Assembly: GCA_002633005.1 (NCBI GenBank)
Contig: NMRA01000546.1
Span: forward strand, 178,106-242,105
Direction of reading: 5' to 3'
Length of the DNA: 64,000 nucleotides
Origin: Phoronis australis
Taxonomy: Eukaryota > Animalia > Phoronida
The first letter of the stretch is position 1, and every line of letters begins with the position of its first letter. The notes below the pieces were generated by a model. It was not told where the DNA came from, did no database searches, and saw only the letters and a program-made list of their open reading frames with translations. Both the position numbers and the translations under genes were made by a program. This document shows positions 3,825 to 52,800 of this stretch, piece by piece.

Positions 3825-4060
3825 ATGGCTGGAGTCGGTGACCCGTATCACAGTGGCAGTAGTGTGATTGACGGAGACCTTGTTCACAGCAGTGGTGACG
3901 AGGAATTTTTTCACGGACATTCAGTGGGTGGGGACAGTTTGAGCCCGAGTGTAACGAGGCAGAGTACGCACAGGCACAGGCAGCTGTTGAGAGAAACGAG
4001 GCGGCTACTGAAGACAGACGTGGTGACACATCTTGGTGCAAATGCACTGTGTGCGTTGAT
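3825..4060 (+). pseudogene. 5' remnant of KolX accessory gene (P2X7 C-terminal/ballast-like Cys-rich family)
   Basis: After a frameshift near 3930 it reads QFEPECNE...EDRRGDTSWCKCTVCVD, the FEP...WCxCxxC signature. Confidence 0.75.
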
Positions 4061-4064
4061 ATCG

Positions 4065-4840
4065 GCCTACCTCAATGGAATGCATATCACGGACAGAGGA
4101 ACAACTGTCCCACTCAGTTGCCAGAGTCTCCCGCGACACACTCCCACTAAATGGTGATCTGAGCACCCAAACTGCTTACATCGTGTCGTGTGACTCCCTC
4201 GCCACACATCTGGCACCTTCTAAATAGACAAGTCTACAATAAACTTATCAAAGTTTGCCTCACCGATCTGTTCACTGAACGACAAACTGTCCTCCCCAGT
4301 GGGTGTCGAACTGGGCCTGTAATCACTCCCACTACTCAATATCGCTGCAGGGCTGGTAATGGGCTGGAGAAAACAGCACAGGGCGAATCACTACTGGTTC
4401 CAGGTATTGCACGCTTTGGGGTACGTTCGGAGGCACGGGTGACAGTAGATGAAGTGCCTCCCCTGGCTCCAGTCACTGTACTGGCCACAGCTCGCAAAGC
4501 TTCTCGCCTCAAAAAACGCACTTCTCAGGGGTGGCGACGGGGCACTGCCGGGAATCAACACAGACGGAATGGCATCCTTCTTCAGGCGTTGTTTCGCAGG
4601 AACCTTCATCAGTTCAGCGTACAAATCCCTTTCGTAACCGGAGGACAGAAAGTGCTTGCTGCACACACGGTAATTCTACACTGCTCTGTACGTTGCGTGG
4701 ACGGGTAACGCTGCGTTCTTCACACGAACGAGCCAAGTACGGCGAAGTGTGTCATCCAACGGAAAGCGATGCAAAGGTACTCCCAAAGCGCGCGTGAGCC
4801 GATAACTAGTATATTCCGGTACGCAGCAACAGTGTGGCAT
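4065..4840 (-). pseudogene. 5' remnant of Kolobok transposase: THAP domain plus second Cys/His zinc motif
   Basis: ATG at 4840: MPHCCCVPE...LHRFPLDDTLRRTWLVRV /frameshift/ NYRVCSKHF...LKKDAIPSV; downstream FRRCQMCG...GAQITI*WECVAGDSGN* with stops. Confidence 0.85.
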
Positions 4841-5104
4841 GTTGACTGACTACTAAATGAAAGCAAACGACAGCGGAACTTAACACAACCGAGGTAGAAC
4901 AATTACTGACTCGGCAGCTCTCACAGTCAGACTGTATGAAAAGAAATTGGCGCGAAATGCTTGCCTCCTAAAACGTCACTTCCGCAGAAGCGGACGAGTA
5001 ATTAATAAATTACGAAAAGCTGTAATTAAGTGGAAAATATGTCTAGGATAACCAACCAGCCTTATTTTAGCTCAAAATGACATGGAAAAAGGTTGCCTTC
5101 GCCT

Positions 5105-5201
5105 TTAACCCTAACCCTAACCCTTACCCTAATCCTAACCCTAATCTTAACCATAACGCCAACACTAAAACCTAACACTAACCACGAACCCTAACCCTAA
5201 C
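5105..5201. repeat. Degenerate (CCCTAA)n telomere-like tract
   Basis: ttaaccctaaccctaacccttaccctaatcctaaccctaat...gaaccctaaccctaac. Confidence 0.9.
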
Positions 5202-7704: not shown

Positions 7705-7800
7705 GACAGCACAGCACTTCACCTGGCAGCAGAGAGGGGCAGGACGGAGGTGGTGAGGGTGCTGGTGCAGGGTGGGGCCGATGTAGACGTGCGAGACAAG
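7705..7800 (+). CDS. Ankyrin-repeat exon 1 (DSTALHLAAERGRTEVVRVLVQGGADVDVRDK)
   Basis: tttctgcag acceptor, AAG|GTAATA donor, 96 nt, phase 0-0, matches the ANK consensus TxLHxAAxxG...GADV. Confidence 0.93.
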
Positions 7801-10800
7801 GTAATAGAAACTACTTGAGCCGACATTAGAATTAAGACAATGTTATCTTTATTACAAAAGCAGTAGACTATGTGAAATTTTACTAAATATTTGGTGTATA
7901 AATACACTTTTCATATCTCATGATTTCAAAAAGTATTTTTCAATCTGTACCGTGTACATGCATCTTACGAAACATTGAGGTTTGAATTGTGTCAACAATA
8001 TATTTATTGACTTAACGTTGATACTTTTCTATTCTTAATGACAATCGTCCATTCAACATTACAATTTTATATTAAACACGAAGCCAGAAAATCGGTGAAG
8101 AAATACAACATGGCTGGATCGCTGTCAAGTTATGGAGGAACTCTGTAATTTCTGGCAATCGACGTCTACAACATGTTCTGTTGTTACAGCAACACTTGAT
8201 TCTTGAAATCATTACAAATATTTTAGCATCTTAGAGGGGTCAGTAATGTTTCATTGATGTCATCTTACAAGTTCACTTTCCCCCGTGTATGTTAATTAGC
8301 TCTAAACGTTGATCGTCCATTCACACATCTCCATTATATATTACATAGGATGGCGTGACACCGCTGCACAGGGCAGCAGAGGAGGGTCATACAGACATAG
8401 TGAAGCTGTTGTTGGCCAACAAGGCCAGTGTAGATGTACGTGATAAGGTAAGTAATGACACACAGGTTGTTTAGTTGAACTAGTTGTTAACAAACACGAT
8501 GATTAAAACTGTTTAGGAACACATTTCGTTGATATTTTTCACAATTTATTGTCCAAAAACAATGACAAGTTCAATGTCGTCTGCTTTTCTTGGTGAAGAA
8601 CCAAAGCTGCGTAGAGTTGTAACATGTTCTGTAACGTTTTAAAATGTGTAACAATTGATTCTTGAAATCATTACAAATATTGTAGCGTCTTAGAGGGGTC
8701 AGTAATGTTTCATTTATGTCATCTTACAAGTTCACTTTCCCCCGTGTATGTTTATTAGCTCTAAACGTTGATCGTCCATTCAAACATCTCCATTATATAT
8801 TACATAGGGGGGCGAGACACCGCTGTACATGGCAGCACGGTGTGGTCATACAGACATAGTGAAGCTGCTGTTGGCCAACAAGGCCAGTGTAGATATACGT
8901 GATGAGTGGGTAAGTAATGACACACAGGTTGTTTAGTTGAACTAGTTGTTTACACAACGATGATGAACCCACAACATGTGACTCGGCTGAATCATTCAAT
9001 GATTTAATTAATCGTGATTTATGATTTCATTTTAAACATTGACATTTTTGTTGCATTCCACCGCACGTGACGTGACGTGCACGCGACTTTAACTAATTAT
9101 AAACAGTTTTTAGTTCACCTAGACTTGCACAGTGACTTGGTTCTTTGCTTGCATTTCCACAGCACTCATTAAATGAATGTCGATATGTTGTAATGTATAA
9201 GATCAAGTTGTTATATTTAAAACACTATTTCTTTCTACATCAGATCAGAACAACAGCTAAAAAATCCCGCGCAAGTTATGTCTGAATTTAAATGTCAGGT
9301 TTTAGTCTGTCCTGTTGAGTCACTCACTTTATCAGTATTGCAACTGATGTTGAAGTTTAAACTGGAAAAGTATAAAACTCGACCTGTTCACCCACCCACA
9401 TCACTATGTATGATGCTGATCAACATTATCTATTTTTGTTCACTTACTGTAGTTTGGTAACACACCGCTGCACGCGGCGTCAGCAGGTGGACATACAGAG
9501 ATAGTGAAACTGCTGTGCATGGAAAGCGGCTGCGACGTCAATACCGTCAACGAGGTATTGCAAGAGTGTTGCACTCTTTGAATAGTTGAGACTGCAATTA
9601 ATGTGTTTTAAATGTAATATGAGTTCGTAAAACTATTCATTCGTAATAAATATCTTGTCAAAAATGATCTCTCTCCTACGTACAATGTAATAATTCGGCA
9701 CACAATAAAAACAGACCAAACGCGCTTTCAACGGCAGACAACAGCCACAGGTTCAGATTTTCTCACTGTTTTAATTATAAAACAAGCAGGTTTTTAATCG
9801 GAATGAGATGCGCATTTAGTAAATCTCTCTGAAGGTTTTAACCTCGCTTGGTTTAATGTCGCCATTATTTAGAAATCCATTTATCCATGTGTTTTAGCCC
9901 CATGGCTTAACTGTACATGTATTTCAACGCCGCCACATAACCGAGTTTGTTCCTGCCATGGTCGGATTTACTATTCTATGATGTTGAAATCTAGGGCGTG
10001 ACTGAGGCAAATTCCCGGGCAGTCCGTCGAAAGCACAAATCCTTTTATCACGGTGCCAAGCCGAGCCCTCTGAACCTAGAAAACGAGCTGTGATCCACAA
10101 TAAATGTAAATCCAAAGTTTGTGTATACATGTGCAGGTTCTTTAAATCGTGTATACACTGAAGCTGGTTTGTTTACGGTTTGTGCGTGAATGTTGTTGTC
10201 GGAAACAGTACCGTGTTTTTTACCTGTCGTCTGCTTCACATGTTACAAAATATGGCATCGTGCTTCATCTCTTTGATTTCTCGTCTTCTTGCTATGTCAG
10301 CAAGTTTTATTGTTTGGTTGCGGAAACTTTTAAAGTTATAAGGATGTATTTCATCATTTCAATGCGGGGCTTGTGTTGTCGTACGTGATTTCTTTTTGAA
10401 ACATCTTGATTAGGAGTGGACGTGATTTTTGTTGGTGACCACGTTATCAAAAGTTTCGTGTGTCAAACATGCAATTATCAATCCAAATATCTCATTGACC
10501 ACTTTCGAAATGTATTACAGGAACTTAAAAATGATGTAGGAACTTACAGTGTATCCGAGGTCGACAGCATTGGAGAATGAATACTCGGGATGTACGGAAC
10601 CGATTTTCAGTTTGGTGAGCAGTGCTCACAAGATACACGGAGTTTGAGGATTAATTCATTCAACAAAATATTCCATCAAAAAGAACGACTTCCTGCTTCA
10701 TAACCACTTCTTTGCATATTTAATTTCAGTTATTAAACCGAATTGTCATTTCTTTCTTTCTTAGCTATGAATGTGTTGGTTAACCCCAGTTTCATTCAAA

Positions 10801-16800: not shown

Positions 16801-19800
16801 GTACATGTATGCGAGGATTCAAAATAGTTTTGAAATCTTAAAATAGGCGATCGAACATAACAAGAAAGCTTTAATTTTGTTACTTTACAGAAAAGGATTA
16901 GAAGCACAACGAGTCACATTATTTCCCTTTGACCTTGACGATAACGCTGCCAATAACATATGCATAAACTCACAAAATGCATTATGGTTGAATAAAAAAT
17001 CTATAAAGTAAGTCCAGTTATACATAACTGCAAGCTCGAATTCTGAAATTTCAATGTGTGGGTCTGGTTGAAATTTAGTTTTCTAATTTTCTCGAAGTCG
17101 GTTGATCGTGTCCCAACGCATCTCAGTTCAACGAATTTTATAAAAAACAACAATAGGTGTATCGGGCCGGAAGGAGACAAGTGCGTCCATACAGTGTATA
17201 TCACGAAACCCGAACAAATCAGACAACAAAGTAGTTAGTCATAAAAAAGAGATATATTGAAATGCTATGGGATAGATGCTGTGAAATGAGGTTAGAAAAA
17301 CTGATCTTATAAGTACAATCGACTACCTGTGAAATTGGCGTTGTTGAATAACTTTTCTTACGCTTGTCTTTCGGGAAAGTCCCCGAACAGCACACGCCTA
17401 GATGTGCATATGGATGTCTGAATATTCTCGCATTATGGATACCAATGTTTTTTTAGTTTTTGCCCACAACGGGTATTTGCGGAAGGTTCGTAGACATTTT
17501 CATAAAAAACAAAGGAAACCGAGTATTTCACACGCAAGAAAGCACAAAAATCAGTTCAGATGTTTTTTGCATCTGTCACAGTTTCAATGGCGAATTGCTG
17601 ACTAGCATATGCGCGTACTCTGTTCAATCACATGACTACATCACATCAAGGGAAGTTATATCTGAGTTTAAACGTCAGATTTTAGTCTCGTCCTGTTGAG
17701 TCGCACTATTCATCAATATTGCAACTGATGTTGAAGTTTGAACTGAAAAAGTATAAAACTCGACGACCTGTTCACCCACCCACATAGCTATGTATAATGC
17801 TGATCAAAATTCTCTATTTTTGTTCACTTACCGTAGAGGGGTAACACACCGCTGCACAAAGCATCAGCAGGTGGACATACAGACGTAGTGGAACTACTAT
17901 GCATGGAAAGCGGATGCGACGTCAATGTCGTCAACAAGGTATTGCAAGAGTGCTGTACTTCTTGATTAGTTAAGACTGCAATAAATGTTTTTTAAATGGA
18001 CTATGAGTTTGAAGTATTGTGAATTCGAAATAAATACAGTGTATGTCGTCAAAAATTTTCTGTCTCCTGCGTAGAGTTATACAAACAGTCACTTCATTAC
18101 TGCATGAACTTTCCCAGAACACTCAGTGGTTCAAAGCAGCTTGTGTAATCGCAATAATTCGGCACGCCATAAAATCAGACCAAATGAATGGCAGGCAACA
18201 GCCACATATTTAGATTTTCTCACCTTAGTAATTATAAAATATGCAAGTTTTTAATCCTGTCACTGCAAGAAATCAGACGTACGTTTAGGAAGTCTTTCAA
18301 AGGAAAATCTGAAGGTTTTAGTCACGATTGCTATAAGATGACGAATATTTAGCAATCAATTTTTCCATGTGTTGTAACCTAGTGGCTTAATTTCAAACCT
18401 ATCACACTGTGTGTGTTCCATAGTCGGATTTATAATTCTATGTTGTAATGTAGGTCGTGAGTGAGGTAGTGTCCAACCCGTCGAAACACAAGTCAATTTT
18501 ACGGTGCTAAGCACAACACCGTAACCGTATTAAAAGAGCCGTGATATTTTTTGATCCACAGTACATGTAAATCCAAAGTCTCCGTGCACTTTAAACTGTG
18601 TGTACACTGAAGCTGGTTTGTTTATGATTGCTGCGTGAATTTAGTTGTTGGAAACACAGTAACGTGTTTTTTTTACCTGTCATCAACTTCATTTGTCTCA
18701 AAGCTAAGGTATCGTGTTTTATATCGTTGAAATATATAGATTATTACATGGCGAAGTCGTTATCCCCCGTTATCTAGAGCCCGAGTGGATTTTGGAGAAT
18801 TATCGCCCCAGGGATCGGATACACTAGTGCAAGGTTTACTTGTCGAACTTTTTGCCAATCTGAGGTAGGCCAATGTTACCCTATAACGTGATCGAACATA
18901 ATTACATGGACATTGCATAGGCGGATTTAGGGGGCCCCAGGGGGCCCGCCACCCCCCTTGGCTGCCGGAAAAAAATAAAACAGCAAGAGCGTTCGGAAAT
19001 GTTGAGTTGATTAATTAACACCGGTAATTAACATTATACGGCGGAAACAAGATTTTAATGTGTGAAGTTTTAGTGTGTTTGGGGAGAGGGGCTAAGACTC
19101 AATTTCAAGTGTCAAATTCGGAACACGGCTCAATCGTAACGAAACTATGTCTAAGTATATTCTCTCCCGCGATATCCCCTGGCGACCGCCAGTGGTGTTG
19201 CGCACTACGACTCCGTTTCCGTCGTCTGCTTCACTGTGCAATGAAGAAAATTACTTCAGTTTTTTAAAGAAAATGGAATCTGAGTGACGATGAAAAAACA
19301 CAAGCTGGTGGTAAGATGTGAATTGTAATCGAAGCCTCAGTGAATCACTCAGAAACTCATAATTATCTCTTTGTCAAACCTTAACTTAAGTTGATTTCCA
19401 AAGCAGTCGCGTCATTAAAGCCAACACAAAAGCGGATTTGGTCTTTTGGTCAATTGAAGACTAATTTAAATACAACAATTTTGTTACGAACTGATTGCAC
19501 AAAGTATAAAAAGGTAATAAGCATTACAAAAAGAAGTAGGTTTCGGGCGTAAACGCTGTGGACCATAAACAGGTAGGTCTCTTATAATCAACTTTTACGT
19601 GAAGTCGTGGTGTAGTGGTAAAGTGCGCTCGCTCTTTCCGCCAGATCGTGAGTTCGAGTCTGTGATATTAGTAGTATTTTTTTCCTTTTTCTTTGCCTTT
19701 TTTTCTTGGATAATATTTCAGGAATCAAGGAAAATGCTAGATTTTTAGAGGAAAAAACAGAAATATTTTCCTGGGCGGGAGGGGGGTTCGCCTCCCTCCT

Positions 19801-22800
19801 GACCTCTCCCCTTTTGTTGCTACGCGCATCTGATCGTGCCCTGCACGAATGTTTTCAGACAACATATTGGGCCCCCCTTGTGATATCCTTGATCCGCCAC
19901 TGCATTATGATGTGGACCTAAAATGGCGATTGTAGAAGGTAAAGGTTGAACACTCGTCCGCTTAACGCCTGGATTAGGATGCAAAACATTTGGACACATG
20001 TGAAACCCTGGACACAGAACCCGAACTCCATATAACGAGACACATAGAACCCGGGACAAAAAGAACCCGGGATGAACAGCTACATTAAATCCGTGAATTA
20101 GGTTTACCTATCCGAATTAAATCTACCTTTTTGCAAATAGGTGTACACGTTGACTGTATTAGGGAGCTGTATAAAGAGTGAAAAAACATTATTGTCCGCA
20201 TCTGCGGCTTTTTGAAAAGTTATTCTCAAAGCCTGGAAATGCTATGACCAATGAAATGCCAACTTGTCAAGATGGGGCTGACAATCCTAATGTATCGAAT
20301 ATCAGAACCGTTTTATTTTAAGTGTAGATGAAATATTAGATTATTCAGTGATGGAAGTGACAATCATAATTTATCGAATATACACACTCAACTTGCACAA
20401 AAATCAAGTCCAGTTAGACAGAGTATTCATATTTTTATTTTTTGTTTTTGTATTCAAAAGACAGCAGAGAGCGCCATGGCATCTTCAGACAATGTTTCCT
20501 ATTGCTTAACAAATCCATGAGATCTTCAGACAATGTTTCCTATTGGTTAACAAATCCATGAGATCTTCAGACAATGTTTCCTATTGGTTAACAAGCATAT
20601 CCTAAATCTGCATCTTCTTCTTTTATGAACAGGAGGAAAACGGAAATATTTCGTGATTTAAATTTAATTTCAAATTTGGAGGAGGTTGACAGAAATGTGG
20701 CAGTTGCTTATGAAATGCATTTGTATTTCAAAGTATCACGGTTCAATTTCTGAATTATTCACTATTAATACATGCTATTAAGCGCGTTCGCAAATCACCC
20801 TGCTTTGCACACCTCAACTGCATGGTCCATATACTATTCTGGTCTTAAAGTAGTATGTGTATTCGATTAAAGTAAAACAGCGGACATACTAGCTGACTAT
20901 CTAAGAGGATGGTCTATGCAAGTTGTTTTGAAATTAAATGGTTTACTATCATGTTATCTAAATAATGTAGTAGCCTAAATGAATATTTTATGAGGTCTTA
21001 ATATAAGTCACATAAAGAATGACGTAGTCATCTGCACATAAGTTTTATGAAAATCATGATCAGTGCAAAATGGCAAACTTTTGCGGAAATAGCTGAGCCA
21101 CTGTTTTGAGGCGTCAATCAATTTTTTCATTTTTAAGATTCCAAAAACATTGCATTTTAGGTTTGACATTACGCTTAAAAAGTGATTTGATGGAAGGGAA
21201 GTAGACTTCACCAGTGTTGACAATTGCCCTTAAATTGACTAGGACGATTTTTGGACTCGTACCTACATGTAAGTGGTTAGAGTGGTTGTACAAAGTCGCT
21301 AATCTCCATACTATAGGAAAAAGCCCATTCCAGTTAAATCAAAACGTAAAACTTTTTTATAAGATCTCACATGTCATAATTGCTTGGGTTCAACAATTCT
21401 ACCGCCGTGTTTTCCTCTTGCTGTGTCGTATCAAGCAGTTATTTTTTTCTATTTTACTCCTATTTTAGCAGTAGCCCATCACAAATATAAGTGTGTCTAT
21501 GTTTACAGGACAATAAAACTGCTTTCGACGTTTGCGGGGAACGCTGTAGTAATGACAACGATGATGTTGAGAGAACGAAGACTATCCTTAAGGTACCGAA
21601 TAAACGACAGTGGGTCAAAAACGTGTCAATACTGTGCATTGGTAACGATAGACTATTATCATCTGGTCATACATTCATGAGGTGGANTTTCACATTACAG
21701 CTGCTGCGAACTGAGTTACAAGCACTAGAATTACCATCTACCTTACACTCAGTAGCCTTACTTTCAGCATTTGAAACACTTTCGTTAACAGGAGGTTCTG
21801 TCCGTGTGAAACCAGGATCATGCAACCATTAACACTGCAAACCACCTTGACTCTGCAATACTTAGAGATGTGACCCTGTTTCAGACAAACAAAACATCTT
21901 CTTGCCTGACGAATGGTTTTCTTCCTACCTTCAAGAGAGTCATGAACAAACCTAGAACAAGTCAATAGTTCATGATCGGTTGTCTGACACAAGGAACAGA
22001 ATTTCTTATCTACAGCATTACCCTGTGACTGTGTGGCAAAAGACACTTTATCATCACGTGACTGAGTTTTAGCAACTTGCTTTTCAGATCTGTACTTAGA
22101 TTTTGAACCAACAATCCGTCCATACAGAGTTTTAGCTACTCTAGCCTTTGACTCAATGAAATCAGTTAAATCTGAGAACTTTGGCTCTACACTTTGTTTA
22201 TCCATGATACCACTAGCATGCTCTGCCCACTTAGCTTGCATATGAAATGGCAAACGCTTCACAGTTTTGATCAAAGTGTCGGAGCACTTCAAATCTGACT
22301 CATAATTCATTTGTTCCAGAGTGAGCATGCCTCTCCTCATGAGCACAGCTAAGTCTGAGAGAGCCACACTGTTAGAACCATCAATGACTGGACCTTGGGT
22401 CACCTGTTTAATAAACGCATGAGCTATAACATGTTGCTGACCAAAATTATCATACAACATCGCTTTTGCTTTTCTGTAGGCTAGCTCTGAGTTACCAAAA
22501 ATAGAGCAGTTTTCAATACACTGTCTAGGTTTCCCTTTACACTGTTGCAAAAGATACATTAGCTTAGACTGACTACCACTAACTCTAGATTCAATATTAG
22601 CCTCGAAATTTCGAATAAAATACCAATACTCAGTAGGATTGCCATCAAATGTAAGCAGTTCTTTTTTCGGCATTTCAAACCCTTCTCTCAAAGTTTCTGC
22701 GAGCTGCTTCATAACTTCCGGTAAACCAGGATACGACCACGGCGCCTCTTGCGGTAAACTAGGGAACCGCGCTGCACCAGCATTCGGTTCTGCACGGGGT

Positions 22801-28800: not shown

Positions 28801-31800
28801 TGCTTGAAACCACGCTCAACATACAAATGATGCGCCGTAAATAGTCACTGTGTTGAACTGTTGATCATTCCGAGCAGGGAAATAATGCGTTATTTGAATG
28901 TGAAACAAGTTGTGACCATACTAACATCTAGCCAAAACCTTGTGTTATCTTTTAAAATGCTCAGCAATACTTCACGTTATCTTGCAGTCTTACTTTTAAC
29001 GAGGTCCTAACGTTATTGAATTCACTGAGGCATGTTTAAAAGCAGAAAATAAATTAGTACATTATAAAGTATGCCAATCGATTTTGGAGGCGGTTGACGG
29101 ATATGGAATAATTTTAACTCGTAGGCGGCTGAAAGCTTTTTGCTTCGACGTCTTACACCTCTATCTCACCTTAGCGACCGTATATTAAAGGTACCAAAAA
29201 CTAACAATGATTGCGATACCTGTAAATACTGTACATGTAGCCAAAGCCATGTGTTTCCATTTAAAATGCACTGCAATACACAAATTCTTACTTTTTAACA
29301 AGGTCCTAGAGTTATTGAACTCACTGAGGCCTGTTTACAAGCAAAAAGTGGATTCATCCATGTATAAAGTATGTCAATCAATTTTGGAAGGGACTGACTG
29401 GTTCTGAATAAATTAAACTTGTAGGCGGCTGAAATATTTTTGCTTGGGCGTCCTACACAACTAATTTACCCTAGTTTCAGTATATTAATGATGCCGAGAA
29501 AATAATGTTCCTATAGATGTCAGTACTGTACAACGGCAACAATAGAACACAATTATGAACTGCCTTCACATGTTTAATTGTCTACTGATACACTTGGGCG
29601 TCCACGAACCCTTGTTCTGTCCAAGAATCGACTTTTTGAGTAGAACCACGTTCCACGTATTTTTAAAATTGGTTTCAACTTAATCCGTACCAGACGAGGA
29701 AGAATTCCAGGTTTTGCAAAGAGCCGTTTGTTATTCGACGAGGTTACGAGCTGTGCACAAACTAACACCACGTGACAAGTAAGCTTGTGGAGCGTGATCT
29801 CAAAGCAATGACTGTCAGGTCCTTTGAAGGCCTGATCTGATCTTCAAATTGATTAAGAGCAGTTAACACCGCAGTTTGGCTCGCTGGTGTATTTTAACTT
29901 ATTTTGGTTGCCACGTTATACTTTGTGGACAGTCCGATTAAAAGATATTCGACAATTACATTTGTATGCGTTGAATTTTGTTTCGTTTCAGGAAGAGTCG
30001 ACAAGCGGAACGCCAACGGCTTTTCTACTGACGTCCCATGCAACAGGTAAGAAAGATTGAGTTTCCATAGCGTGAATTTGACCACCTTCGTGGCGCATAC
30101 CGGAAAAGCGCTCTGTAGCCCTATTTTCACTAAAAAGCAAGATACCTGAAGACTTCGGAAAATCACTGTAATGAAACGCTTGCGTTTCATAAGTATGCTA
30201 GCGAGCTTTCTAGCCTGACCTACAGTAGAAAAAATGGTGATCGCTGAACGAACTTCAATGTTGGTGAGAGTGGATTGTCCAATAAGCTGGAATTTTTCGC
30301 CTACAGCTTAAACGAATATCTCACAACCTATTACCTTACCCTCACGGCCAAAACGAAACATCGGCACTCACAATAATGGAAACGGCGAAATCAGTACCCT
30401 TATACAATATTTTGACATCAACTTTCATTCACTTTGACTGGCACTATTCATTACGTCCACGGATTTGCCATCATGCCTGGAAATGAGGTGATGTGTCAAA
30501 ACTACGAATGGTTCGGCATGTTTGGAAACCCACGCTTTCACGTTTGCGTGGTTAAAACAGATATCGTTTCCTAAACAACAATCATTTTTTTAGCGTCATC
30601 AAAGTGTGGGAATAAAGAAATTTACCTGGATATGCAAGTTAGCTTCCAAGCATACACTTGCACCTTTGTATCCCATGCACGTTGGACGTTCTTGGTATAC
30701 ATGTATTGTACTTGTTTTACTTGGTACCTCACTTTGGGCACGCCTTTCCGGTCGGCTGGGATGCACTCTACAGAGGAGGACATCGTCAAACAGTAAAATT
30801 ACGAATCTGTATTGTATTTTTAAATGTTCTCTCTTTAAAAAACTACTGTCGTGTTTTCGTCAGTATCTTTTGAAGAATCACACCATCATGGACAGGGTTC
30901 CAAGTACAATGTACTAGAAATATTTTGTAGTGGTAACTTTGCATTAACCAAGTATACACTACGTATGGCATACATGTAGAAGTAATTGTACAACGTAAGG
31001 TGCCAGGGTAAAAGGTGCTTTTTTGGCAAGTTATCGTTTATCTAAATTATAATCTATAGATGCCTTTTGAGTACCATTAGATGTACAGATATTGTTATTC
31101 CGCAAAACTTCAAATTTGATGAACCGTTGTTAGTAAGACAAAACAACACTTACACTAATTAGAAATGAGATTGCTTTATTAAAAATACTTAAAACTTTTG
31201 CTTGCAGTTGGGTCACGTAATCGTGTTTGAATCAGAGTAGCAAAAATAGTCGTTCGTTGCAAAACTACTGCATGGTTTTAATAACACGGTTAATTTTCGT
31301 TTAATGTAAATGTTCACGATGAAGACCATATTACTGTCCTTAAAGTTATTTTTTCGTGTTTATTCCATCCACAATTTGAGTCCTGCTAAATTGTAAGCCT
31401 TGAAAACAATTATCAACAAAATAAATTAAAGAGCGATGAATCAAACATGGTGTGTGAAAGCTTCATATTGATACGGTCATTTCTTTTTGCGACAAGACGT
31501 TAGCTAAGAATGGACATTTTTAAGAGTACTGGTTGACCTTAAAGGGGCATTGAACTGTAAATTTGTAAAAACTACATTTCAAAATGTCGTGGATAACCTT
31601 CTTCACGGGGAGGCTAAATGTGAGCGTTTTACATCTTGAATATTGCCAGAGGAAATGTGGCGTGCGTTCAAAAAGTCGGGTTGGCTACCACTTGAACTCT
31701 CCATTGTTTTGTTTACATCAAGGGTCATAGGGCACATGTAAGGGCAGTTTTCGGACACCCTTGCGCTCTGGTAGCCGTATCAATTTCCGGTCCGTTTCCT

Positions 31801-37800: not shown

Positions 37801-40800
37801 AGAATTTTGCAACGAAGGGCAAATTTCATATAACATATTTTTAAGACAATTTTGGGATGACAACCAATTCTACGGCACTATTTTAAACTTTCGAATTTTG
37901 AAGTAGAGTTTAAGCATGACTACATAACAGGCCTGAATAATGAGGGCAAGTATGAATTTTGTTTAAAATCATATTTTTTCGAAAACTGGAAATTCCATAG
38001 TATATTAAAGAAGTTTGATTGTATTTAAAAAAACAAAGGCAACACGATTTATTTATCTTTGAAGACAGAACTTTTCCATATATACAGTAGCGTACCTCTT
38101 CGCTTTTTGCTTTGCTGTTCTTTACCGCTTCTTCAAAGTGGGTAAAATTACAACAATGGTGTGAGATATAAATAAAATTGATGTGAGAAAAACATGGAAT
38201 CAAAAATGATTGTGAATGTTTCTCAATTTCTCTTAGTTACGTGCAGTACATTTAACCAGTAACATTTGTCAAATCTGCATTTACATGTAGTTTGTTGACA
38301 TTGCTTGTCTCGAGGATAGTGCTTCATACCTCCCTTACATTAAAGGTAGTCGCCCTCTCTAATAGAAATCAAGCGGGGGTTCAGCAACGCTAGGACCTAA
38401 GCTAGGACCTAGCTTGAACCTACCCAAAGCCATGTGTTCCCATTTAAAATATATAACAAGATCTCATGAAATCTCCCGAAGTCTTGCCTTTTAGTGAGGT
38501 CATCGCGTTACTGAACGGGAGCAGGATTCGTGGAGCTCCTACTTTTCCTTATTTTGTCAATTTTTAAAACAATTTCTACTTCCTATACTAGTTCTTTAGA
38601 TTCTTACCTTTTAAAAATGGTATGGGAAAATATTCATTCTTTTTTAATTTTCCTCAATTTCGTAATTTCTGACTACCTAATTGCGCTCAATAACTGGAAA
38701 TCATAACCTGTGTAAAATGTAACATATCATTTAAGCTCGATTTTTGGTTCACTTAAATTTCACCTATTATTCACATGAATACCAAATTGTCTTCAAAGCC
38801 GAGCCAAAGATGAATCAAGTGTTTTCAACACCTATGCATTTTGAAATGGTGACAGATTTATTTTTGTTTATATTTTAAGCAAAAACCATTAACTGTTGTC
38901 AAATGTCTGACATTTTCTAAATATCCAAAAACTATAAAGACAGCTCTTCATACCAATTCCTAAAACTATACAGTACATCGATATATCCATCCGCTGGCAA
39001 AGGTTCTACTTGAAATGTGTCTGTGATATGTATGAGGAGTTTTCGACTTTAGTTTAACCTTATCTTTCCTCGACCCAAGTAATCTATTCGGAATTTAAAG
39101 CTTTCACTAAAAGCATTCCGATGCGATTCATCGAACAACCGGTAGTTTTAGGAAACATCATCCGTAAGCTAGAGTTTACAAAAGGTGCGAATCGTTACCT
39201 TCTGGTGTACTAATTTCATCAGTTACTGACGAGAACAAGATGCATGTATGCAGGTTCTAGGACCATCGTACGACCTAAAATACAAGTCCTATATAATGTT
39301 TCATGAGCTCTATTGAATCGAACGTCACTTGCAAGAACTTTTTAAGAAGCTCGTCAGAATCAGTGCTCTCTCTTTAAATTTCTGCGAACTCATGACACTT
39401 GACGTAAAACCAGAGTGTGTTTAGAACAAACTAATTGCTATGAAACACTTCGCAACTATAAAATGTATATTTATGACTGAAAACTGGTGCATCAACCAGA
39501 ATGTTTGTCTGTCTGACGTAGGATTCTGTCCTCAGACTACCGTGGAGCCAAATAAGGTCAATTACACTGTACCCCAAAAATCCTGTTTCAAAACATTTGA
39601 CACGACCTCATGGTAATTTTACCCGATGAATGCACTGTGTAACCTGAATAAATTAATCAGTTTCAGCTCCAAAAGCACGTGCTCCGAAAACTCATTACGA
39701 GATCGACATTTTTCAAAAGCATGACGACCTGTCCGAGAAGCCAGTAAATCGGCCACGTTCGCCTGTGGATGAAAGGGAGAATGGTGCGTATTGTTATCTT
39801 TAGTGTAGTAGCTACACTGAAACATGTACTTTCATAAAGTATTAATTACTCAAATATTTGAGAGTGCGCTGACGCGTACATTACGAGAACTATTTCTGTC
39901 AAGTTTCGTTAAAGCTCCAACGTATGATAAAGGATGTTATTGAAAGAGCAAATACAAAATTACTTATGCAAATGTTGCGAACCCTTATGTGAAGATGGAA
40001 GTGATCGCTATTAAAATCACTATTAAGACACAGAACAGTGTTTTAGTGGACTGTCGCTTCAATTCCTCCCAGAATTTGATAAATGTCAATTTTTATCCTT
40101 ATAGCGATTATAAATGGAACGACTGGTGGTGTTATTCGCTGGAAAGAGGTTGAATTTAGAGTACCTTCAAATGCAGTATGTGGACACATACACGTTGAAA
40201 TAGTAGATCAGCCGTTATTAGTGCAAGCAGTGATTGACAACACGAACGGCAGGGCTACACTCCATCGTCAGAGAATATGCGTGACTTGTGCGGATGAAGA
40301 TGTGATATTCTCAGAGCCAGTCGAAGTGCGAGTGACTGTTAGAACAATGTTGGAAGGACTATATCTCCAACAACTAGACAGAGAAGGCTTTTGCATATTG
40401 CGTGAAAAGAATGGTGAAGTAACGGATGTTACTGAAGAGTGCAATGTCAGGGTACAAGGAGAAGAAATATTTTTCTACTGCAAAACATTTTCGATTTTTC
40501 GTACTGCATGGGTGGGCGCTGCCAAACTTCTCAGGCCCATCAAAAATATTATATTTACGTCGTACTCGTGTAAGTTATGCCCGTACATAGAAGGTGAACC
40601 TCATGGAGGGTTGACAATTATGGTATTTTGCCATGGCATCGATGTCGTCTGTTCTGCTAACCTTCAACATGAATGCATACGTGAAAGCTGGTGCTTGACA
40701 GATAAAACCTCACTCATCTTTGAAGTTGAGTGCCTGGGCGTTAAGAGTAACGAAATGAAACTGATCTCGCATGAGTTTGAGCTTGATAGAGACTGTTGTG

Positions 40801-43800
40801 AAAGCACTGGTACATCATTTGGAGAATCTAAGCCTGGCGTTAAACCTCTTGTAGCTGACAAGGTTAATGTGAAGCTGAGGGTATCAAACTATCCGAAACC
40901 ACTGCTAGACAGGCCTGAGAAGGTTCATGTACATGTAAGTACTTGTTTTACGTGTTGGGGTGTCAATATGGTCGTGCAGATATTCTTGTGAGGTTGCACT
41001 TGGCATTTGGTGTATTTATACTGTACCGTGAATCCGCGTTTCTGTTACATTGCTCGGAAGAAGTTAAAATGGCTAAGGGGAAAGGAGAAATGGATATCCA
41101 TTTAAGAGTGTTTGTTGATCCATAATCAATGTTTTGGATCATCTGCGATTCATAAAGGTTATGGAAGCTGTTCTAAGAAAATTGACATGGATAAGACACA
41201 TCTTAAGTTAAGTTCATTCCAAGATTTAACTTAAATTTGTTTCAAGAAGTAGGAGACAAATTTGACTAAAATTTTTGACTTACCTTTTGTCTTAAATTTA
41301 CTAACTTGCAGGATGTGAAACTTGCATAGTTGGAAGTTAAGACAAATCTTAAAGATAATTCCAAAATGAATTTAACAGCCCCATGATTTCCACGCACACC
41401 AAATCAATACTCTTTAAAATATCACGTTAGTGTGTGCATTATGTTTTTATTGATTTAGACAATACAGTCGGTGTAACATGACGTTTTGAATCCATGGGAA
41501 ACATACCTGGGGTCACGTTCAACGCTGAAAAACTGACTGTTTGGTTATTTTCATCAAGATTGTGACACATTGGCTTAGTGGTTTTGAACTCTGGACTCCT
41601 GTTTGTGGGACCAGGTTTCGAGCCCTCGACTGACAATCGAGTCTTGCACAAAGGTGTCATCTACTCCTCTGTGCTCCGTCTTACAAGTGATTGTACATGT
41701 ATGCAAGGTAGTGAACGAGAAGTGAATGAAAACCTGGATTCAACGAGAAAGCAATTTCCGGGGGTGTTCTAAAAACGATCAAATTGAAGCTCCTCGCGTG
41801 ATTAAATGGAATTTCCTTAAATTTTTACCCCTGGGTTTCATATTTAATGGAATCTTATTCTGAGCGGCGAAACATTGGCGAGTAACATGACGAAATGAGG
41901 AAGTTAGACAGGGAACAACTTCCTATACGACCACCACACCGGCACGGAATCGGCAGGTTGGAAATCGAGAGTTTTTGGATTGCGATACTAGGGCCCATTG
42001 CACTTTTCAGCCAAATTGCTCCACCATCGTTGCTGTCGGCCTTTTTTGTTCGAACAGCTTTTCGCTCGCGGTTTCTTGCTCTATAGTAGATGTAGTGATC
42101 AAACGTGATGTGAAATGCGGTGAATTTATGAAATATACGGGTCAATTGCGATTAAAATGTAACAACACTAGATAAACCATAAGCAGTTTGAAATTCTGTA
42201 GTCAAGACGAGCTTCGAAACTAATTTAGGGGGAATTACAGTCTGACTTTGGCATTTGCAGTAGCGACTTCGAGCCCATTTGAAATTTTTCCAAGGTGGCC
42301 CAATAGGAAGCTTTAATGTAACAAAACTAGATAAACCATAAGCAGTTTGAAATTCTGTAGTCAAGACGAGCTTCGAAACTAATTTAGGGGGGATTAGAGT
42401 CTGACTTTGGCATTTACAGTAGCGACTTCGAGCCCATTTGAAATTTTTCCAAGGTGGCCCAATAGGAAGCTTTTGCAATGTCTTCCAAAGTTAGCTCATT
42501 TTCATCTCTGTTCTTGACCTTCTGCAACTGTTTCACAGATAAAAGTTTTACTTAGAATTTGAAGGAAACAAATGACAAGATAGGAAGAAACACGTTATTG
42601 CAAGACTATAGTAAGGATTGTTATAAAACCATGCATAGGTGGACTCGTATAGAAGGCAGTGACACTGCAATGGATCAGCAACAAATCGATCTGTGTTTGA
42701 CTTGACACACTAACTCAATGTTTTAAGAACCATGCCTAATGTGGTAAACAAGCTTCTAAACTAAAAGTAACTTAAGCTTTTTGAAAGAGGTTTTGTGATT
42801 CGCTGCTGAGCTTCAATCAAACTATAATTCATCAAAACTTGCAATAAGCCGATGTTAATGAAAAGATGGAATGGCAAAGGCATCAGATTTGTCTACGACG
42901 TACACTGTAGTTGTCAGTTATGCTAAATTTGTGGTGGCGGGGGCAAAGTATTTAGGGCCTTACCTCGCTTAGGTTTGCTTCTGATCTACGCTTTTTCAAA
43001 ACCTTAATTCCGCAGCCATGTGCTGATGACCGAGCCAAGTGACAGTATAATCATGACCTTTTTCATACAGCCGAGTTGAAGACCGGGAGCTTGGAGACGT
43101 GGTTGTTATGAAGGTGTACCAACTGTCAAAAGAAAACAAAGCTGTCCTCCTACGTTCAAGGAAAGTCCAAGTGAGTATCAAATACAAACAATCAAATACC
43201 TGCTCACCTTCAACGCATTGTTTACTTGTTGCTATGGAACAGTGTGCTCACCTACAGGGGTGCATTCTGTTGTCAGACTTCTGGGACGTCCCAAAATGAC
43301 CACTCAGCTGATTTAGAATGTTTTTACTTCTACCAAAACACCTTTTTGAAAGATAACAAACATAATTCCACTTAACAGTTGATAGGTTTCAGCCCAATTT
43401 CAGTCTTGTTTGACCTGCATGTATGGGTGTCCCTTATACGGGCCGTATTCATGTATTTCGTGTCTGTTTTTGCGCTCCCTTCTTTTGGCAGATGAGTTTC
43501 TTTTTTAAAGTCATAACAGATAATATCGACGGGTAGACTTATTAACGTCTGTCCTATTTTTCAAGTTGACTGATAAAACTTCATGAATTTAGACATATGT
43601 GATTATGTAATCCTACCAGGAATGCACGTCTGCCTAAAAAGATGGTGAAAGGAAATGTTAAATGCTTAAAAACCGTTTCATGGGATTTGTTTTTTTCTCA
43701 TTAAGTCATTGATAAGCTTGTATGAACACACTTGGCTGGTTTTAAATGAGACAGTTCTTCTACAGTAGGTGTTTGTTGAAAAGAATGGTCTCACGGATCT

Positions 43801-46800: not shown

Positions 46801-49800
46801 AGCCGTTTGTGCATAGATTGGTGATCCTGAAAATCAATGTGTCGGGCTTACACGTAAATTTCATCAGAAGAAAGTAGTGTTTAGTGTTGATTAGGTATTC
46901 AAAAACTAGTTTTGCATGAAATTATTAGCCTTAAAATACCCCGACATGGGCGGAACTGAATTGTAGACGATTCTAGTTTGAACATCACTTTTTGCAAGCT
47001 CAAATCCGAAAAGACGATTTAAAGTACCTGCACTACATTTGCAGCCATTGGAAATTTCCGATCATAAATGTTGTCTGTTTCTGGCGCTGAAAATTATGTG
47101 GTTTTTAACAAAAACTCTTCTTGTGTTTCGCTTGGTGATGAGTCTTTCAACGGTCACACGTGGTATTAGTCTCTGGTAACTGTGGTATACTTTTGCTGAA
47201 CGCTTTGTTACCAATAAATATAGAACATACATGCAACACGTGTACTATCTCTTTCCTTGCTGACACCTGCCATGTGATTTAACTTTTGTGTTTTAACTTT
47301 TTACACTTTACAAGACGTCCTGGAAGTACGTAGCGGTGAGCCTTCAAAGGCCTGCAAACAATCTTATATAAATAACTCTTTTTCAGAAGTTCACCAACAA
47401 GCCAACAGGATCGAGCAACCTTTATTAAAGCAGGATGACCGTGAAGAGTTTAGAGTTGGAGTGGCAATGAGCCAAATCGGTCAAGTCCAGTTTGCTCGAA
47501 GCGTTAGTATTTTATTCATATTTCCGTAACCATTTTCTTTAAAACTGTCATAAAATGGCCAATTTTGAATCCAAGTTTGGAATTGGTTGCATGAGAGCCG
47601 TCAAACTGACGATGACATTACTTATATTGCGGGAAAAAATATTCCAACTCAGGGCCTACGGGTCTGATTATCGTACATGTATATAGTGATTGTTGGAGCA
47701 AAACAAAACAGACTCGGGGGCTTTACTCTTTTATTTGTCAGTATAATAAGTAGTAGATGACGTAATAGGTCAACTGAAATATCGCAAAAAATATGTTTAA
47801 GTTCACACGTTGCGTAATGCTACACCATGTACATATACAGTAACGAATTCGAGGACAACGCCCTAGAAAATGATGACGGGCAAAGAGTACAATGAAACAC
47901 AGATAATGTTTTTGCTTGCAAGGGCAGCCAACGTGAAATCACTATTTAACAACTACTGAATGTTAGCTGGGTTCTATATTTCCAGAATCAGAAAGACACG
48001 ACTGCTGAATCGCCATCAACATGTGCTTATCCTTCAGAAGAACAAAGTAAGTAATCGAGTCTAAATAGATAATGCCATGCAGACTGTGGGATTTTGTGAC
48101 GAAAAAGTATGAATTACTGACGGAATAAGTGAACTAGAGGAGGATTTCTTAAAATTGTGAAGAATGAATTTTTTGCATGTAAACATGAACTGTGTTATTC
48201 ACGTACAATCAAAAACTTTTGGCTCGTATTGCAAAAGAATTGAAAGCATATCATGTAATACTTAGCATGTCGCGATGTCTTACGTTACCTCGCGTATCTG
48301 CAATTTCCTGGAGTCTACCGAACGCACGCCAGGTCTACGACACTCCCGTTTGGCTTGCAAGTCTAAAGTCGACATTTGGACGCATGCGCGTTGATGGTGA
48401 CATGGGCTGTGTTCCAAGTGCAAAGACGACTAATACTGATGCGATCACGTACCCAAGTAATATATACATAAAAATACACGCACACATACATATACATGTA
48501 CATGTGTTTGCATAATTCATTGTGCAGTGGCGGATCGACAATTTTAGTAAGGGGGTGTTTAGGATTTGTGCTTTGCGCACGTACATGAAGCGCCAAGCGG
48601 AGGAAGGTCGGGAGATTCCCCTCCAGAGCAAGACAACTTTTTTTGTTTTTTTAACCAAATAGCGCAATTTGCATACAACCTGGCGACGTTTGTGGCAGTT
48701 AACATATCTCTGGAGGTTTCTTGAGACGATTTAAAGCCTTCTCGATTTTGTCTCATGAACTCGGTTCAGAAGTTCAGTAAAAACATATTTTTGCTCACTA
48801 AGTGTATGAGTCAGGCCACCATCAAAAATTTAGATGGAGCAACTGTCTACATAGGCACATCGATGTTTCGCATACGAAAAGCAGTACACAAATATGTGTG
48901 GTATATACATGGTTTAGGTAATTACCAAATATTCAAGAGCATAAGGAGCACCGACGGTCACGTAAAAGCACAACATTTGAATATCAGATGATCACGTGAC
49001 AGCAGTCTCAAGTTTTTAAAAACGAAGACCGGCACTGTTACATGTATCCCAAGAGATAAACATATCCCGTCTAGTTATAACGAAAACTGACGAACGATGA
49101 TGATCCCAGGGCATAGTTTGTTATTGAAAGCGACAATTAACACTCGAGTGTCACTTTTAAACGGAATCAAGTTGCCTGTTGACTTATCTGTAGAGAACTT
49201 TACAAAACACACTGTGGTAAAACTATTACTACACCAGTGCACTAAGAGTCGATGGCTACATTGTATACACACTGTGAACTAACCTTACCTGGTCCGTTGC
49301 AAGAACTAAAGTACCCTATGCGAAGGAGTTTTTCCATAGACACGTTTTGATCCCCAGTGATTGCTCATACATATATTTCATGTATTTTCCCGTTACCCAT
49401 TGACAAAACTTCACGCACTTTCAGTCAAAGAAGAAAGACTTGCAGAATGCATACTTAGGGCTGCTCTGGACCAGTGACTTGTGTATTTTTGCATAATGCA
49501 TGTCCATCAGTGATACCCCAGCCAGCATATCCTTAGAGATTGTTGACCTAAAATGTGTCTTCACACGCCTCTGAGCACAGGAAGTGCTCTATCAGTCACA
49601 CAGGATCCAATAGGAGTACACACGGGGGGTTTAAGCCCCTCAATCTCCCATGTATCCACCTCTAGTGACGGTATTTTGCACCCACAAGCGTGCACTGAAA
49701 TAGGTAGGATTGAATTTTGCGTGAAATTGCGATAATTTTGTTTATATCAGAGTTCACATTTCCGTATAAGGTAATTTTCAGAGACTCAGTTGTGTTGGTG

Positions 49801-52800
49801 GTCCGGCAATAAAAATCAAGCGCAGGTGCCAGATACTAAAATTTGGGTGAGGGACTTATTGTTTTGAGCTCAAGAGTTACATGTATGTTTGTTTAGAACT
49901 CAACGCCCGTGGATGTTTTATCGATTTACATGTTTAACTGTCACCAGGGCCAATGTTTGTTTTCTGTTTATAGTGAACTTACATTTATAACGTGCCCTGT
50001 TGTAGCCCCGTATTTTGATCGCGGTTTTGCACTTGGGCGATGAAGAAAGGTTTTCTCTAAGTTATCATTAGATTGGGTCCATTAGCTAAAATGCTCTTTC
50101 TTTTTGTCAAGAGTCAAGTCACTTGTTGCTGTCTGCGCTTCATGTGTAAACAAATGGATGTCACTGAACATTTGGACAGTTAATGGAATTAAAATTTGAA
50201 TAAAAAGCAGTATAAGGACAGTGACACACTCAGATGGTACCAATACATTTTCAAAAACACCATGGCCGTCATTCAGGAATCGTTCCTCACCGGATGAATA
50301 AGGTATTCCAGTCACGGGAATAAACAACAATGTTAGATGACAATTTGTAATTTCGGCCGAGGTACAACATCGTGTTAATTAAATTTGTACTTTATTTCGA
50401 AACAGAGTGAAACATTACATCATGTTACACACTGCTTAATTTTGTGTTCTTTGTTTCCAAGTGTTTCATTTTGGAATAAGCACACAAGATGGACTTAAAC
50501 CGAAAGTCAAAAATTTCAAGGCTACCAATGGCAGGATGGCTCGTGGTTTAAGTATCACCGGCTACGCAAGTTTTTTGCGAAAATTTGCCAAAACAAAACA
50601 CACGCTCTTAAGACAATAGAAATATTTATGACTGAAAGCTCCAGACAACTGTCATACACACCTCCGTGTAATCATCTTCAACTTAAAGAGTGACGTGTAG
50701 CAAACACTAGCAGGAAAAATTACCTTCAATAAACTTTAGTTGTGTGGTACAGTACATTATAGACTTATAATTAAATGGAACTATGTCTAAGACAGCATTG
50801 GGTCATGTGCAAACTAACGGAAACAACTATCCGTACATGTATTGTTAACAGAGCTTAGAAATGTGTCAATTTATTCTCAGGAATACGGAGAGGGCCAAGA
50901 GAACTTCATCAACAGCTGCTACTGAAGGTTGCTGACAGTGTCATTGATCCTGACTTTAAAAGACTAAAGGGGTTGTGTAAAGCGTGGATAGAGTAAGAAA
51001 GACAACGTTGCATAATTGTACAAATTATACATGTATATGCACAGTGACCGCAAGTAATCACGAGTGTATCATACTACATTATCAAGTTATCCTGAGCACT
51101 GCTTCTGAAGCTGTTGATTCCTACAATAGAGCCAAAGAGCTCTACTCCGATCACAAAATGAACATGGATTGTGACTCCATTTTCGTCAGAGGCATCAAAA
51201 CAAAAATTGTCGCCTTTGCTCTAAACGAAATGCCCTAAGGTAATTGTAGTATTATCGGCCACAACCACGAGATTTTCGTTTCAAGATGAGTTACCGAAAA
51301 ACAAGCGTAAATGGCACTACTGGCGCCGTCTATTGTTGAACGTGTTCCAGGTTTATGTAGGTTCAATGGAGGTGACTGGGTTAACATTGTTCAGGAGCGT
51401 GTTAATTGTCATGTATCAAATATCTTCAAAATTGTGCTTTTATCTCAGTAATTGTAAATCTTTTTAAAAGAACAAAGCCTGTAGAGTTTGATCTGTGACC
51501 TTATACTATCTGTAGCAAAACAACAGTGTTCATATTTCCTCCATAAAAATGTTCAATATCTCAAAATGACAGACACTTTTTTCTAAATTATAGTTTCGTT
51601 TTCGCGTCATACAACAGAAAAATAATAAATCTTCTCTTTATATCCCTCATGCAGAAGTGGAAATGTTCAAAAACCATTAAGAATAGCATTTTGGAGAACC
51701 GTCCATAAAGCATAATGTCTTTCACATGAATCCCAACAGCCATTTGTAAGATGTGATGTTCCGAAGCAAATTTGGCCATTTTCGTGGCTCCAACACAACC
51801 ACCAAATTTGATTTTCACAGCGCTTGAGTTTTTTACATCAGCCTGCACGTTTCATGTTTTTGGAAATCTCATTTCTCCTTTCATTCTCCAACGCTTTAAA
51901 TAATCTTGATTGGGACATGAAAGATAGTCCATTAGTTATATGCTGGTGTCAGGGAGGACACAACTCTAAAGTAATTGGAAGTAGTCGATTGTGGATTTGT
52001 CTGTGAATATAATTAACACTTATTCACGGAAGGTTTTTCCAGTCAATGTAGCGGACTTGTAGAGTCGTGTTGCTTCAATCTCCAAAAACTCTGAACGGAT
52101 CTTTATGAAATTTTGTAGACATGTTTATATCATAGATTGTACGGCATGACCGAATTTTTGAACGGATGCAATTACCCGACGCTGTGCCACTTAAGGCGAA
52201 TTTATTTTTTACGTTTCCCTTTTTACCTTCCGAGTTTTGACTGAATTTTCATAAAAGTTTGGAAATAGGTATTGGTTAAGAAGACGACGCCTTGTTCTAT
52301 TTTTACTGGGATTTGATTGACGTTCATGTATTCTGCACCACCTAGTCGCTGTTTTCATTGTTTTTGGCGTCCACTTTCTCTCTACCAAGCTACTGGATTG
52401 ACATACATGTATACACATGATTTGCATATTCATATACGTTAATGACGATTGCGAAGATATACGTGGTCCTTCTGGGACGCACACGGCATACCATGGTTTT
52501 TGGATGGCTCTTTACAACGGTGGCACAACCTTGTGGTATTTTGTTTTCTTCTTTATGTCCGTAACTTCAGCCGTACTGCTGCAATACGTTTGACACGCCA
52601 CATGTTCCAAACTCGTTATGGAAAGTCTTATCAACCGGGTTCTAAACGTTGTACTCAAATCATATTCGATTTCTTGTTGCTTTTTCCGTTTTTTCTTTCG
52701 TGTGAACTCGAACTAACTGTGCATTATTCTTTGCTGAAGATCATTATGATTTAAGCAAATGTTGCTTCAGTCCAAGTTCTCACCTGGTGGACCTCTATTT

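Follow-up and report, generated by a model that had tools for sequence, protein, structure and literature searches.

A multi-copy family of one-repeat ankyrin exons in Phoronis australis varies at predicted binding-surface codons and probably fronts an intracellular receptor

The window analysed here is a 64,000-nucleotide stretch of Phoronis australis DNA (assembly GCA_002633005.1, contig NMRA01000546.1, positions 178,106 to 242,105, forward strand), which is animal-type in character, rich in introns and 38% GC. A motif scan of the window identified five ankyrin exons, all on the + strand. All five score above the Pfam Ank (PF00023) cut-off (40.7–44.7 bits versus 21.1), each encodes a single repeat and runs from phase 0 to phase 0, and the exon boundaries fall between consensus positions 2 and 3, which splits the repeat at the tip of the hairpin. 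Exons 2 and 3, the subject of this report, lie in two homologous blocks (cassette copies A and B) and belong to a family of many copies, the variation of which is focused on surface codons (3, 5, 10, 13, 14 and the hairpin tip), with uniform flanks, sense transcription and tandem splicing. The ankyrin exons and cassettes are as follows.

7705..7800 (+): ankyrin exon 1, the first ankyrin exon found; 32 codons, phase 0, AG/GT ends; Pfam Ank E 2e-10
8170..8506 (+): cassette copy A, comprising intron flank, exon 2 and intron flank; 89% alike to 8621–8967 over 348 blastn columns
8349..8447 (+): ankyrin exon 2; 99 nt, one full repeat, phase 0, AG/GT ends; Pfam Ank E 1e-11
8621..8967 (+): cassette copy B, comprising intron flank, exon 3 and intron flank
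8808..8909 (+): ankyrin exon 3; 102 nt, 34 codons, with an extra Trp before the donor; AG/GT ends; Pfam Ank E 3e-11
9453..9554 (+): ankyrin exon 4, of a second scaffold type; Pfam Ank E 5e-11
17837..17938 (+): ankyrin exon 5, an older duplicate of exon 4 including its flanks; unit 83% alike

The only close pair among the five is formed by exons 2 and 3, which share 25 of 33 residues. Numbered along the 33-residue ankyrin consensus, the replacements from exon 2 to exon 3 are K2E (1 nt), D3G (2), V5E (1), H9Y (1), R10M (1), E13R (2), E14C (3) and V32I (1), accompanied by a silent change at L23 (1 nt) and an extra TGG codon; H9Y and V32I occupy framework positions rather than the surface. The count in the initial annotation—12 nucleotides in eight amino-acid-changing codons, one synonymous substitution and an additional codon for Trp—was exact. 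In designed ankyrin repeat proteins (DARPins), the classic randomised positions are 2, 3, 5, 13, 14 and 33. These six positions hold 9 of the 13 differing nucleotides (binomial p 8e-5) and five of the eight changed codons (hypergeometric p 0.0013), bearing out the earlier view that the changes cluster on the binding surface. In the more diverged pair, exons 4 and 5, the flanks differ by 10–16%, and the codons at positions 3 and 10 have changed in every base.

The proposed comparison of exon with intron divergence gave a clear result. Codons 2, 3, 5, 10, 13 and 14 differ at 10 of 18 nucleotides, versus 7 of 201 in the introns (6/158 upstream and 1/43 downstream; p 1e-8), while the remaining 27 codons differ at 3 of 81 nucleotides, which is the intron rate. 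Taking the downstream intron block to 59 nt gives three mismatches and a gap there. For this exon pair alone, the surface-codon excess over the intron rate is approximately 16-fold; relaxed constraint would reach the intron rate only. The six-codon set matches that of PMC3308923, a source consulted only after the data had been seen. Neutral drift or assembly noise, acting on ankyrin surface positions that are simply unconstrained, is thus very improbable: whole-exon pN/pS (the ratio of proportions of nonsynonymous and synonymous differences) is not significantly above 1 (p 0.34), and the available text of PMC4308713 describes surface positions as high in entropy in ankyrins generally, but the surface rate exceeds the neutral one 16-fold or more where unconstrained sites should only equal it. 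In addition, the pattern recurs in one DNA run (X1) and two RNA runs (X6 and X8), and the private letter of exon 3 is present in the DNA run.

Copies of the cassette were sampled by aligning the public DNA run X1 to positions 8760–8960 (201 bp), using an 80% likeness filter that removes diverged copies, exon and intron alike. In total, 137 contigs align. Of 37 variants at a frequency of at least 5%, 35 fall within the 102-nt exon and two within the 99 intron nucleotides; 23 of the 37 lie in codons 2, 2a, 3, 5, 10, 13 and 14, and ten more, located in or past helix 2, resemble a second type of framework.

8808–10, 8814–16, 8829–31, 8838–40, 8841–43 and the exon end (+): codons variable across copies, from the X1 variant tables

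Positions 1 and 2 of codons 3, 5, 10, 13 and 14 are variable at all ten sites, with a diversity of 0.55. The corresponding values are 0.053 for 52 first and second positions of framework codons, 0.014 for the 14 fourfold sites and 0.005 for the intron. Codons 4, 6, 7, 8, 11, 12 and 15, which are interleaved with the variable ones, carry no variant at or above 5% in X1, nor does position 33; the hairpin tip (position 2 and loop length) also varies across copies. RNA diversity at the same ten surface sites is 0.54 in X6, calculated from 36 of 50 variants, and 0.47 in X8, from 36 of 43. Diversifying selection on the predicted binding face, as the initial annotation had it, is thus supported across copies in all three runs. 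A run with a second organism label, X5, contributes three contigs on 8760–8960 that share the flank and are altered at these codons as well; over 8760–8861, its intron flank has 1 difference in 48 nt from the window. A separate observation concerns the T-P-L-H motif, in which a His to Tyr change at 8826 reaches up to 43% of X1 depth (57% for the His letter) and approximately 22% of RNA reads; such a His/Tyr dimorphism at position 9 is unusual in a framework residue.

The X1 contigs also bear on how the exon pair arose. The private letter of exon 3 at 8895 was found at depth 6.5, and exon 3 is accordingly real DNA. Only this letter (V32I) and intron position 8783 are private to copy B, the surface letters of which are common in X1. 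Codons 2, 3, 5, 9, 10, 13 and 14 contain 11 differing sites, and at each of these both letters are deeper than a single copy: the exon-2 letter accounts for 7–70% of X1 depth and the exon-3 letter for up to 25–93%, where one copy corresponds to no more than approximately 2% in the greater part of the exon and approximately 5% at codon 2. Surface letters shared so widely with other copies indicate that the pair was likely drawn from a shared, reshuffled pool. Depth at flank position 8783 is 4834 across 22 contigs, so that at least one contig has a depth of at least 220, compared with 6.5 for the private allele and 3–14 for the long contigs listed.

The initial annotation had instead implied a single recent 459-bp tandem duplication at this locus, followed by selected point mutations at the surface codons of the pair. 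Parts of that description stand: the copies are adjacent and 459 bp apart, intron divergence is approximately 4%, and the changes are clustered. However, homology extends over only approximately 340 bp, and the sequence separating the two blocks is unrelated (a single 12-nt match, at the block edge), and the duplication was thus not a clean head-to-tail event. With the surface letters of both copies far deeper in X1 than one copy allows and widespread among the copies, fresh substitution after one duplication is not supported, and we consider this history improbable.

A slim chance attaches to a dedicated diversifier, that is, targeted mutagenesis or templated, possibly somatic, exchange of cassettes as in the variable lymphocyte receptors (VLRs) of lampreys. 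Several codon changes involve multiple bases, silent sites 1–3 bases from hypervariable codons lack any variant at or above 5%, the flanks are near-uniform (including the 1 difference in 48 nt of X5), and cassettes that are transcribed but likely decayed exist, as in an X9 contig described below. Nevertheless, the variant-bearing X1 contigs have a single-copy-like depth of 3–14, as for germline copies; variation prefers first and second codon positions, as selection predicts; and no mutator gene was seen in the window. A search for a long inverted repeat flanking the cassette likewise found none.

Transcription was assessed with raw reads from RNA runs X6, X7 and X8, from the same species, using approximately 18–19% of each run and mapping to 7400–27300. 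Reads in all three runs cover the ankyrin exons on the sense strand, with approximately 260–320 sense versus 0–5 antisense reads on exon 3 (X6 and X8). One cassette-to-cassette joint is supported by 30 reads in X6, 28 in X7 and 0 in X8, and the joint between the end of exon 2 and the start of exon 3 by 1, 0 and 6 reads, respectively. The letters at splice joints vary, and reading them by hand gives hairpins from two residues shorter to one longer; the extra codon of exon 3 is thus a recurring type of change. Beside these reads, window positions 8663–8957 are matched by a deep X9 RNA contig and many X8 sense reads that follow the cassette intron flank, a gapped exon and a 295-nt step back. This transcript is likely a transcribed decayed cassette array from a different locus. 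At 25328–26655, strand-specific RNA depth reaches 440–600 with reads that fit only in part, likely reflecting a common repeat present in many transcripts.

Splice scans extend the ankyrin exons into a 16-exon chain spanning 7705–53801, AG/GT-bounded, in phase and open for 877 codons. The model orders five ankyrins, a likely capping half-repeat, five linker exons, a 55-nt exon, an 830-nt exon, a 61-nt exon and a split last domain resembling a death-effector domain (DED). The exons behind the ankyrin row are as follows.

21509..21592 (+): predicted capping half-repeat; phase 0 to 0 by splice scan; like an ankyrin C-cap by eye, with no Pfam match
24671–24772, 24811–24912, 24951–25052, 25091–25297 and 28260–28472 (+): five predicted linker exons, from the splice scan
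29992..30046 (+): predicted 55-nt exon, phase 0 to 1; joins the linker to the ZU5-like exon
40105..40934 (+): 830-nt exon, predicted; its first part is ZU5-like, a T-F-S motif lies at 40485–40493, and a UPA-like part rich in beta structure follows
47986..48046 (+): predicted 61-nt exon, phase 0 to 1
50881..50992 (+): exon predicted to encode the first half of the death-effector-like domain; in phase with both neighbours; no Pfam match alone
53537..53801 (+): exon predicted to encode the second half of that domain, with either a stop at 53801 or a donor at 53709

The first four linker exons derive from a 140-bp tandem unit, present in 3.8 copies at 24656–25188, each unit made up of a 102-nt phase-0 exon and a very short 38-nt intron; the linker, too, seems to grow by exon duplication. 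Sense RNA depth over 24664–25327 is 7.0, 4.3 and 0.1, and an X9 contig lies on 25088–25284. In the 830-nt exon, the T-F-S motif occupies residues 127–129, with approximately 147 residues following in the exon. No homologue of this exon was found among 1066 longer candidates, among 208 of similar length, or at E 0.001 among 1.84 billion representatives, and comparison with the PDB gave nothing significant. Single-sequence AlphaFold models were poor (mean predicted local distance difference test scores of 37 and 35), so the fold was not judged from them; a fold search with the first model gave no meaningful match (best Z 6.2, unrelated), a result neutral on the ZU5 assignment. The second half of the DED-like domain matches positions 33–81 of the 82-position Pfam DED profile (E 0.002), and the length of the preceding exon fits the 32 profile positions absent from that match. 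No death-fold match was found in the PDB. An exon-2 protein search returned 26 generic ankyrin proteins among 39 candidates (39–86% identical over part of the query), none with the same architecture by Pfam list. NACHT and NB-ARC were found neither in the 877-residue model, which lacks the first exon(s), nor in the 18 of 102 open frames scanned, and ROC, COR and NB-ARC had no match in the exons behind the ankyrin row.

Two open, exon-like stretches, 43071–43170 and 47387–47502, lie between the ZU5-like and DED-like exons, out of phase with the model, and are possible alternative or decayed exons; the former was left out of the model because it needs a phase-2 entry. The intron that splits the DED-like domain contains a 33-bp tandem repeat of approximately six copies in an open frame (52901–53098). 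Farther from the ankyrin row, three other elements were seen in the window.

3487–5108: element with long terminal inverted repeats (arms of 102 and 71 nt), containing two frames, one THAP-like (E 0.0003) and the other weakly P2RX7_C-like (E 0.054)
5106–5201: degenerate TAACCC array abutting the right end of that element
21738–23138 (−): intronic frame of 466 codons that matches DUF1759 (E 2e-6) and is likely the remnant of a Bel/Pao-type gag; RNA there is antiparallel to the ankyrin gene

Taken together, exons 2 and 3 are copies of a multi-copy, one-repeat ankyrin cassette with diverse surface codons and a near-uniform remainder, which probably forms the front of an intracellular cell-death receptor. 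Several results weigh against this interpretation. On selection, whole-exon pN/pS for exons 2 and 3 (0.150/0.073) is by itself not significant, and that for exons 4 and 5 is below 1 overall (0.142/0.205). The case is a diversity contrast, and leaving variants below 5% unlisted lowers neutral diversity and inflates the family ratio of approximately 40-fold. The copy number, at a rough reckoning of at least 16–34 if a depth of 6.5 is taken as one copy, depends on contig depth, which does not count copies, and X1 may itself be pooled. Exchange between copies is read from shared letters, which recurrent mutation under selection could mimic. On expression, the cassette family is transcribed and spliced, but the private letter of exon 3 occurs in at most 1 of 276 reads in X6 and at most 1 of 149 in X8; the RNA samples have sample codes different from that of X1, and the exon 3 allele may be absent from them. 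Most aligned RNA reads are less than 95% alike to the window (378 of 418 in X6 and 360 of 437 in X8), leaving locus-specific expression unproven. On the host gene, the best Pfam match of the 830-nt exon, ZU5, has E 0.03–0.12 and 13–15 bits against a cut-off of 21, and the DED match scores 18.7 bits against 35.9. The UPA part has no Pfam or PDB match and was assigned by position, and the motif is T-F-S, compared with S-F-S in CARD8 and NLRP1 and H-F-S in PIDD1 in the available text of PMC3210808. Finally, the 5′ end of the gene model is missing, with no ATG-bearing exon found in scans upstream of exon 1 within the window, and no RNA read mapped on 7400–27300 joins the ankyrin exons to the linker or ZU5-like exons, the two halves being linked by strand and phase alone.

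Arranged in falling order of probability, the alternatives are another recognition task, the single-duplication history, the dedicated or somatic diversifier, and neutrality. The first, to which we give a modest chance, retains the cassette family and assigns it a non-immune task such as gamete or self recognition, transposon control or substrate choice, or else places the ankyrins in a gene separate from the ZU5/DED-like exons. The strand-and-phase linkage and the weak domain calls leave room for it. Canonical ankyrins also combine ankyrin repeats with ZU5-UPA-death domains in non-immune roles; they are, however, conserved and low-copy. Unlike them, the ZU5-like exon has no homologue in the search of 1.84 billion representatives, and the repeat pattern matches that of non-self receptors of fungi and brown algae.

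Returning to the receptor reading, domain content and analogy suggest a possible immune or allorecognition role. It is quite likely that crossing-over and conversion exchange, gain and remove same-phase cassettes while selection keeps the binding residues diverse; the X1 pattern is the one that concerted evolution combined with diversifying selection would produce. With all exons in phase 0 and the flanks nearly identical, repeats could be reshuffled by unequal crossing-over and gene conversion, so that the row of repeats in one gene could present a new combined surface. Exchange among copies would keep framework, silent sites and flanks alike, with selection maintaining diversity at the predicted binding residues. 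More tentatively, the ankyrin row would be joined through the linker to a ZU5/UPA-like module and then a DED-like domain, and by analogy with CARD8, NLRP1 and PIDD1, the protein may cut itself at F/S. Binding of a foreign protein by the ankyrins could then free or cluster the UPA-DED piece, which might recruit a DED caspase. By this analogy, cytoplasmic binding of foreign proteins by the ankyrin row, with triggering of the ZU5/UPA-DED module, is an evenly balanced proposition. A broader and more doubtful proposal is a germline 'DARPin library' of tens to hundreds of ankyrin cassettes, recombined into rows on a self-cleaving ZU5-UPA-DED module: an anticipatory, CARD8/PIDD-like intracellular repertoire that may recur in marine invertebrates. 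Its boldest form, which adds a dedicated and possibly somatic process of cassette exchange or mutation, seems distinctly unlikely.

The question touched by these exons is how invertebrates, which are without antibodies, recognise fast-changing intracellular pathogens. If the interpretation is true, the family offers a small, expressible receptor with its variable residues already mapped, allowing direct ligand hunts and cleavage tests. Evolution would have picked the same six positions that protein engineers randomise, and the natural additions—loop length and His/Tyr at position 9—could inform binder design.

Turning to known systems, the available text of PMC4986451 describes the ankyrin, TPR and WD40 sensor repeats of Podospora NLR proteins as having high internal conservation and concerted evolution, with positively selected sites on the ankyrin inner helix and hairpin, the binding face. 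The cassette family is alike in its excess of amino-acid change on the inner helix and hairpin, seen here as a diversity contrast only. It differs from what that text reports in that the repeats within this protein do not reach more than 85% identity across at least 100 residues, the mark used for the fungal set; in that every repeat has an exon to itself, flanked by conserved intron sequence, in an intron-rich animal host; and in that the repeats precede the predicted output domains, with no NACHT or NB-ARC in a model lacking its 5′ end. The brown-algal genes for ROCO and for NB-ARC-TPR proteins, as presented in the accessible portions of PMC3341825 and PMC11378527, similarly have one repeat per same-phase exon, exon shuffling (which we infer for the present family), diversifying selection on the ligand face and decayed spare exons. 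Shared flanks, shared surface letters and differing neighbours are compatible with shuffling between loci here. The repeat is ankyrin rather than LRR or TPR, and ZU5/UPA-like and DED-like parts follow in place of the ROC-COR of the algal genes in those portions.

For the predicted output half, the closest comparison is with the FIIND proteins. According to the text available for PMC3210808, the cleavage site, located where ZU5 ends, is S-F/S in CARD8 and NLRP1 and H-F/S in PIDD1; according to that for PMC7794386, the self-cleaved UPA-death-fold piece of CARD8 and NLRP1 is held and, once released, polymerises and recruits a caspase. The model shares with CARD8, NLRP1 and PIDD1, as portrayed in these texts, the predicted order of sensor, linker, ZU5-like part ending in an F/S motif, UPA-like part and C-terminal death fold, and differs in its variable ankyrin row as sensor, DED-like death fold, T-F-S motif, below-cut-off domain calls and predicted cleavage. 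Among engineered proteins, the library in the available part of PMC3308923 randomised ankyrin positions 2, 3, 5, 10, 13 and 14, the set that varies in the cassette family, and the excerpted text of PMC4308713 places the randomised positions on the hairpin and helix 1, forming one surface. Relative to DARPin-type libraries as outlined there, the family is natural, has no variant at or above 5% at position 33, shows His/Tyr at position 9 and changes in Cys, Gly and loop length, and contains several coexisting framework types.

Among animals, the abalone report (PMC12627906) is alike in its expanded ankyrin genes, marine invertebrate host and suggested defence role; site-level selection, cassette exons and death domains are not reported in its available text. 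The accessible text of PMC8195603 describes lineage-specific invertebrate proteins that mix ankyrins, death folds and ZU5-UPA, without the cassette pattern. A literature search, lying outside most subscription journals and supplements (where gene tables of related families may exist), found no animal one-exon ankyrin cassettes that vary at library positions with a ZU5/UPA-DED output. Overall, the cassette family resembles the fungal NLR and brown-algal repeats yet, on the features compared, belongs to neither. Repeat-sensor variation is already known in those fungi and algae; it is found here in an animal, and the initial observation on exons 2 and 3 is real and stronger than annotated.

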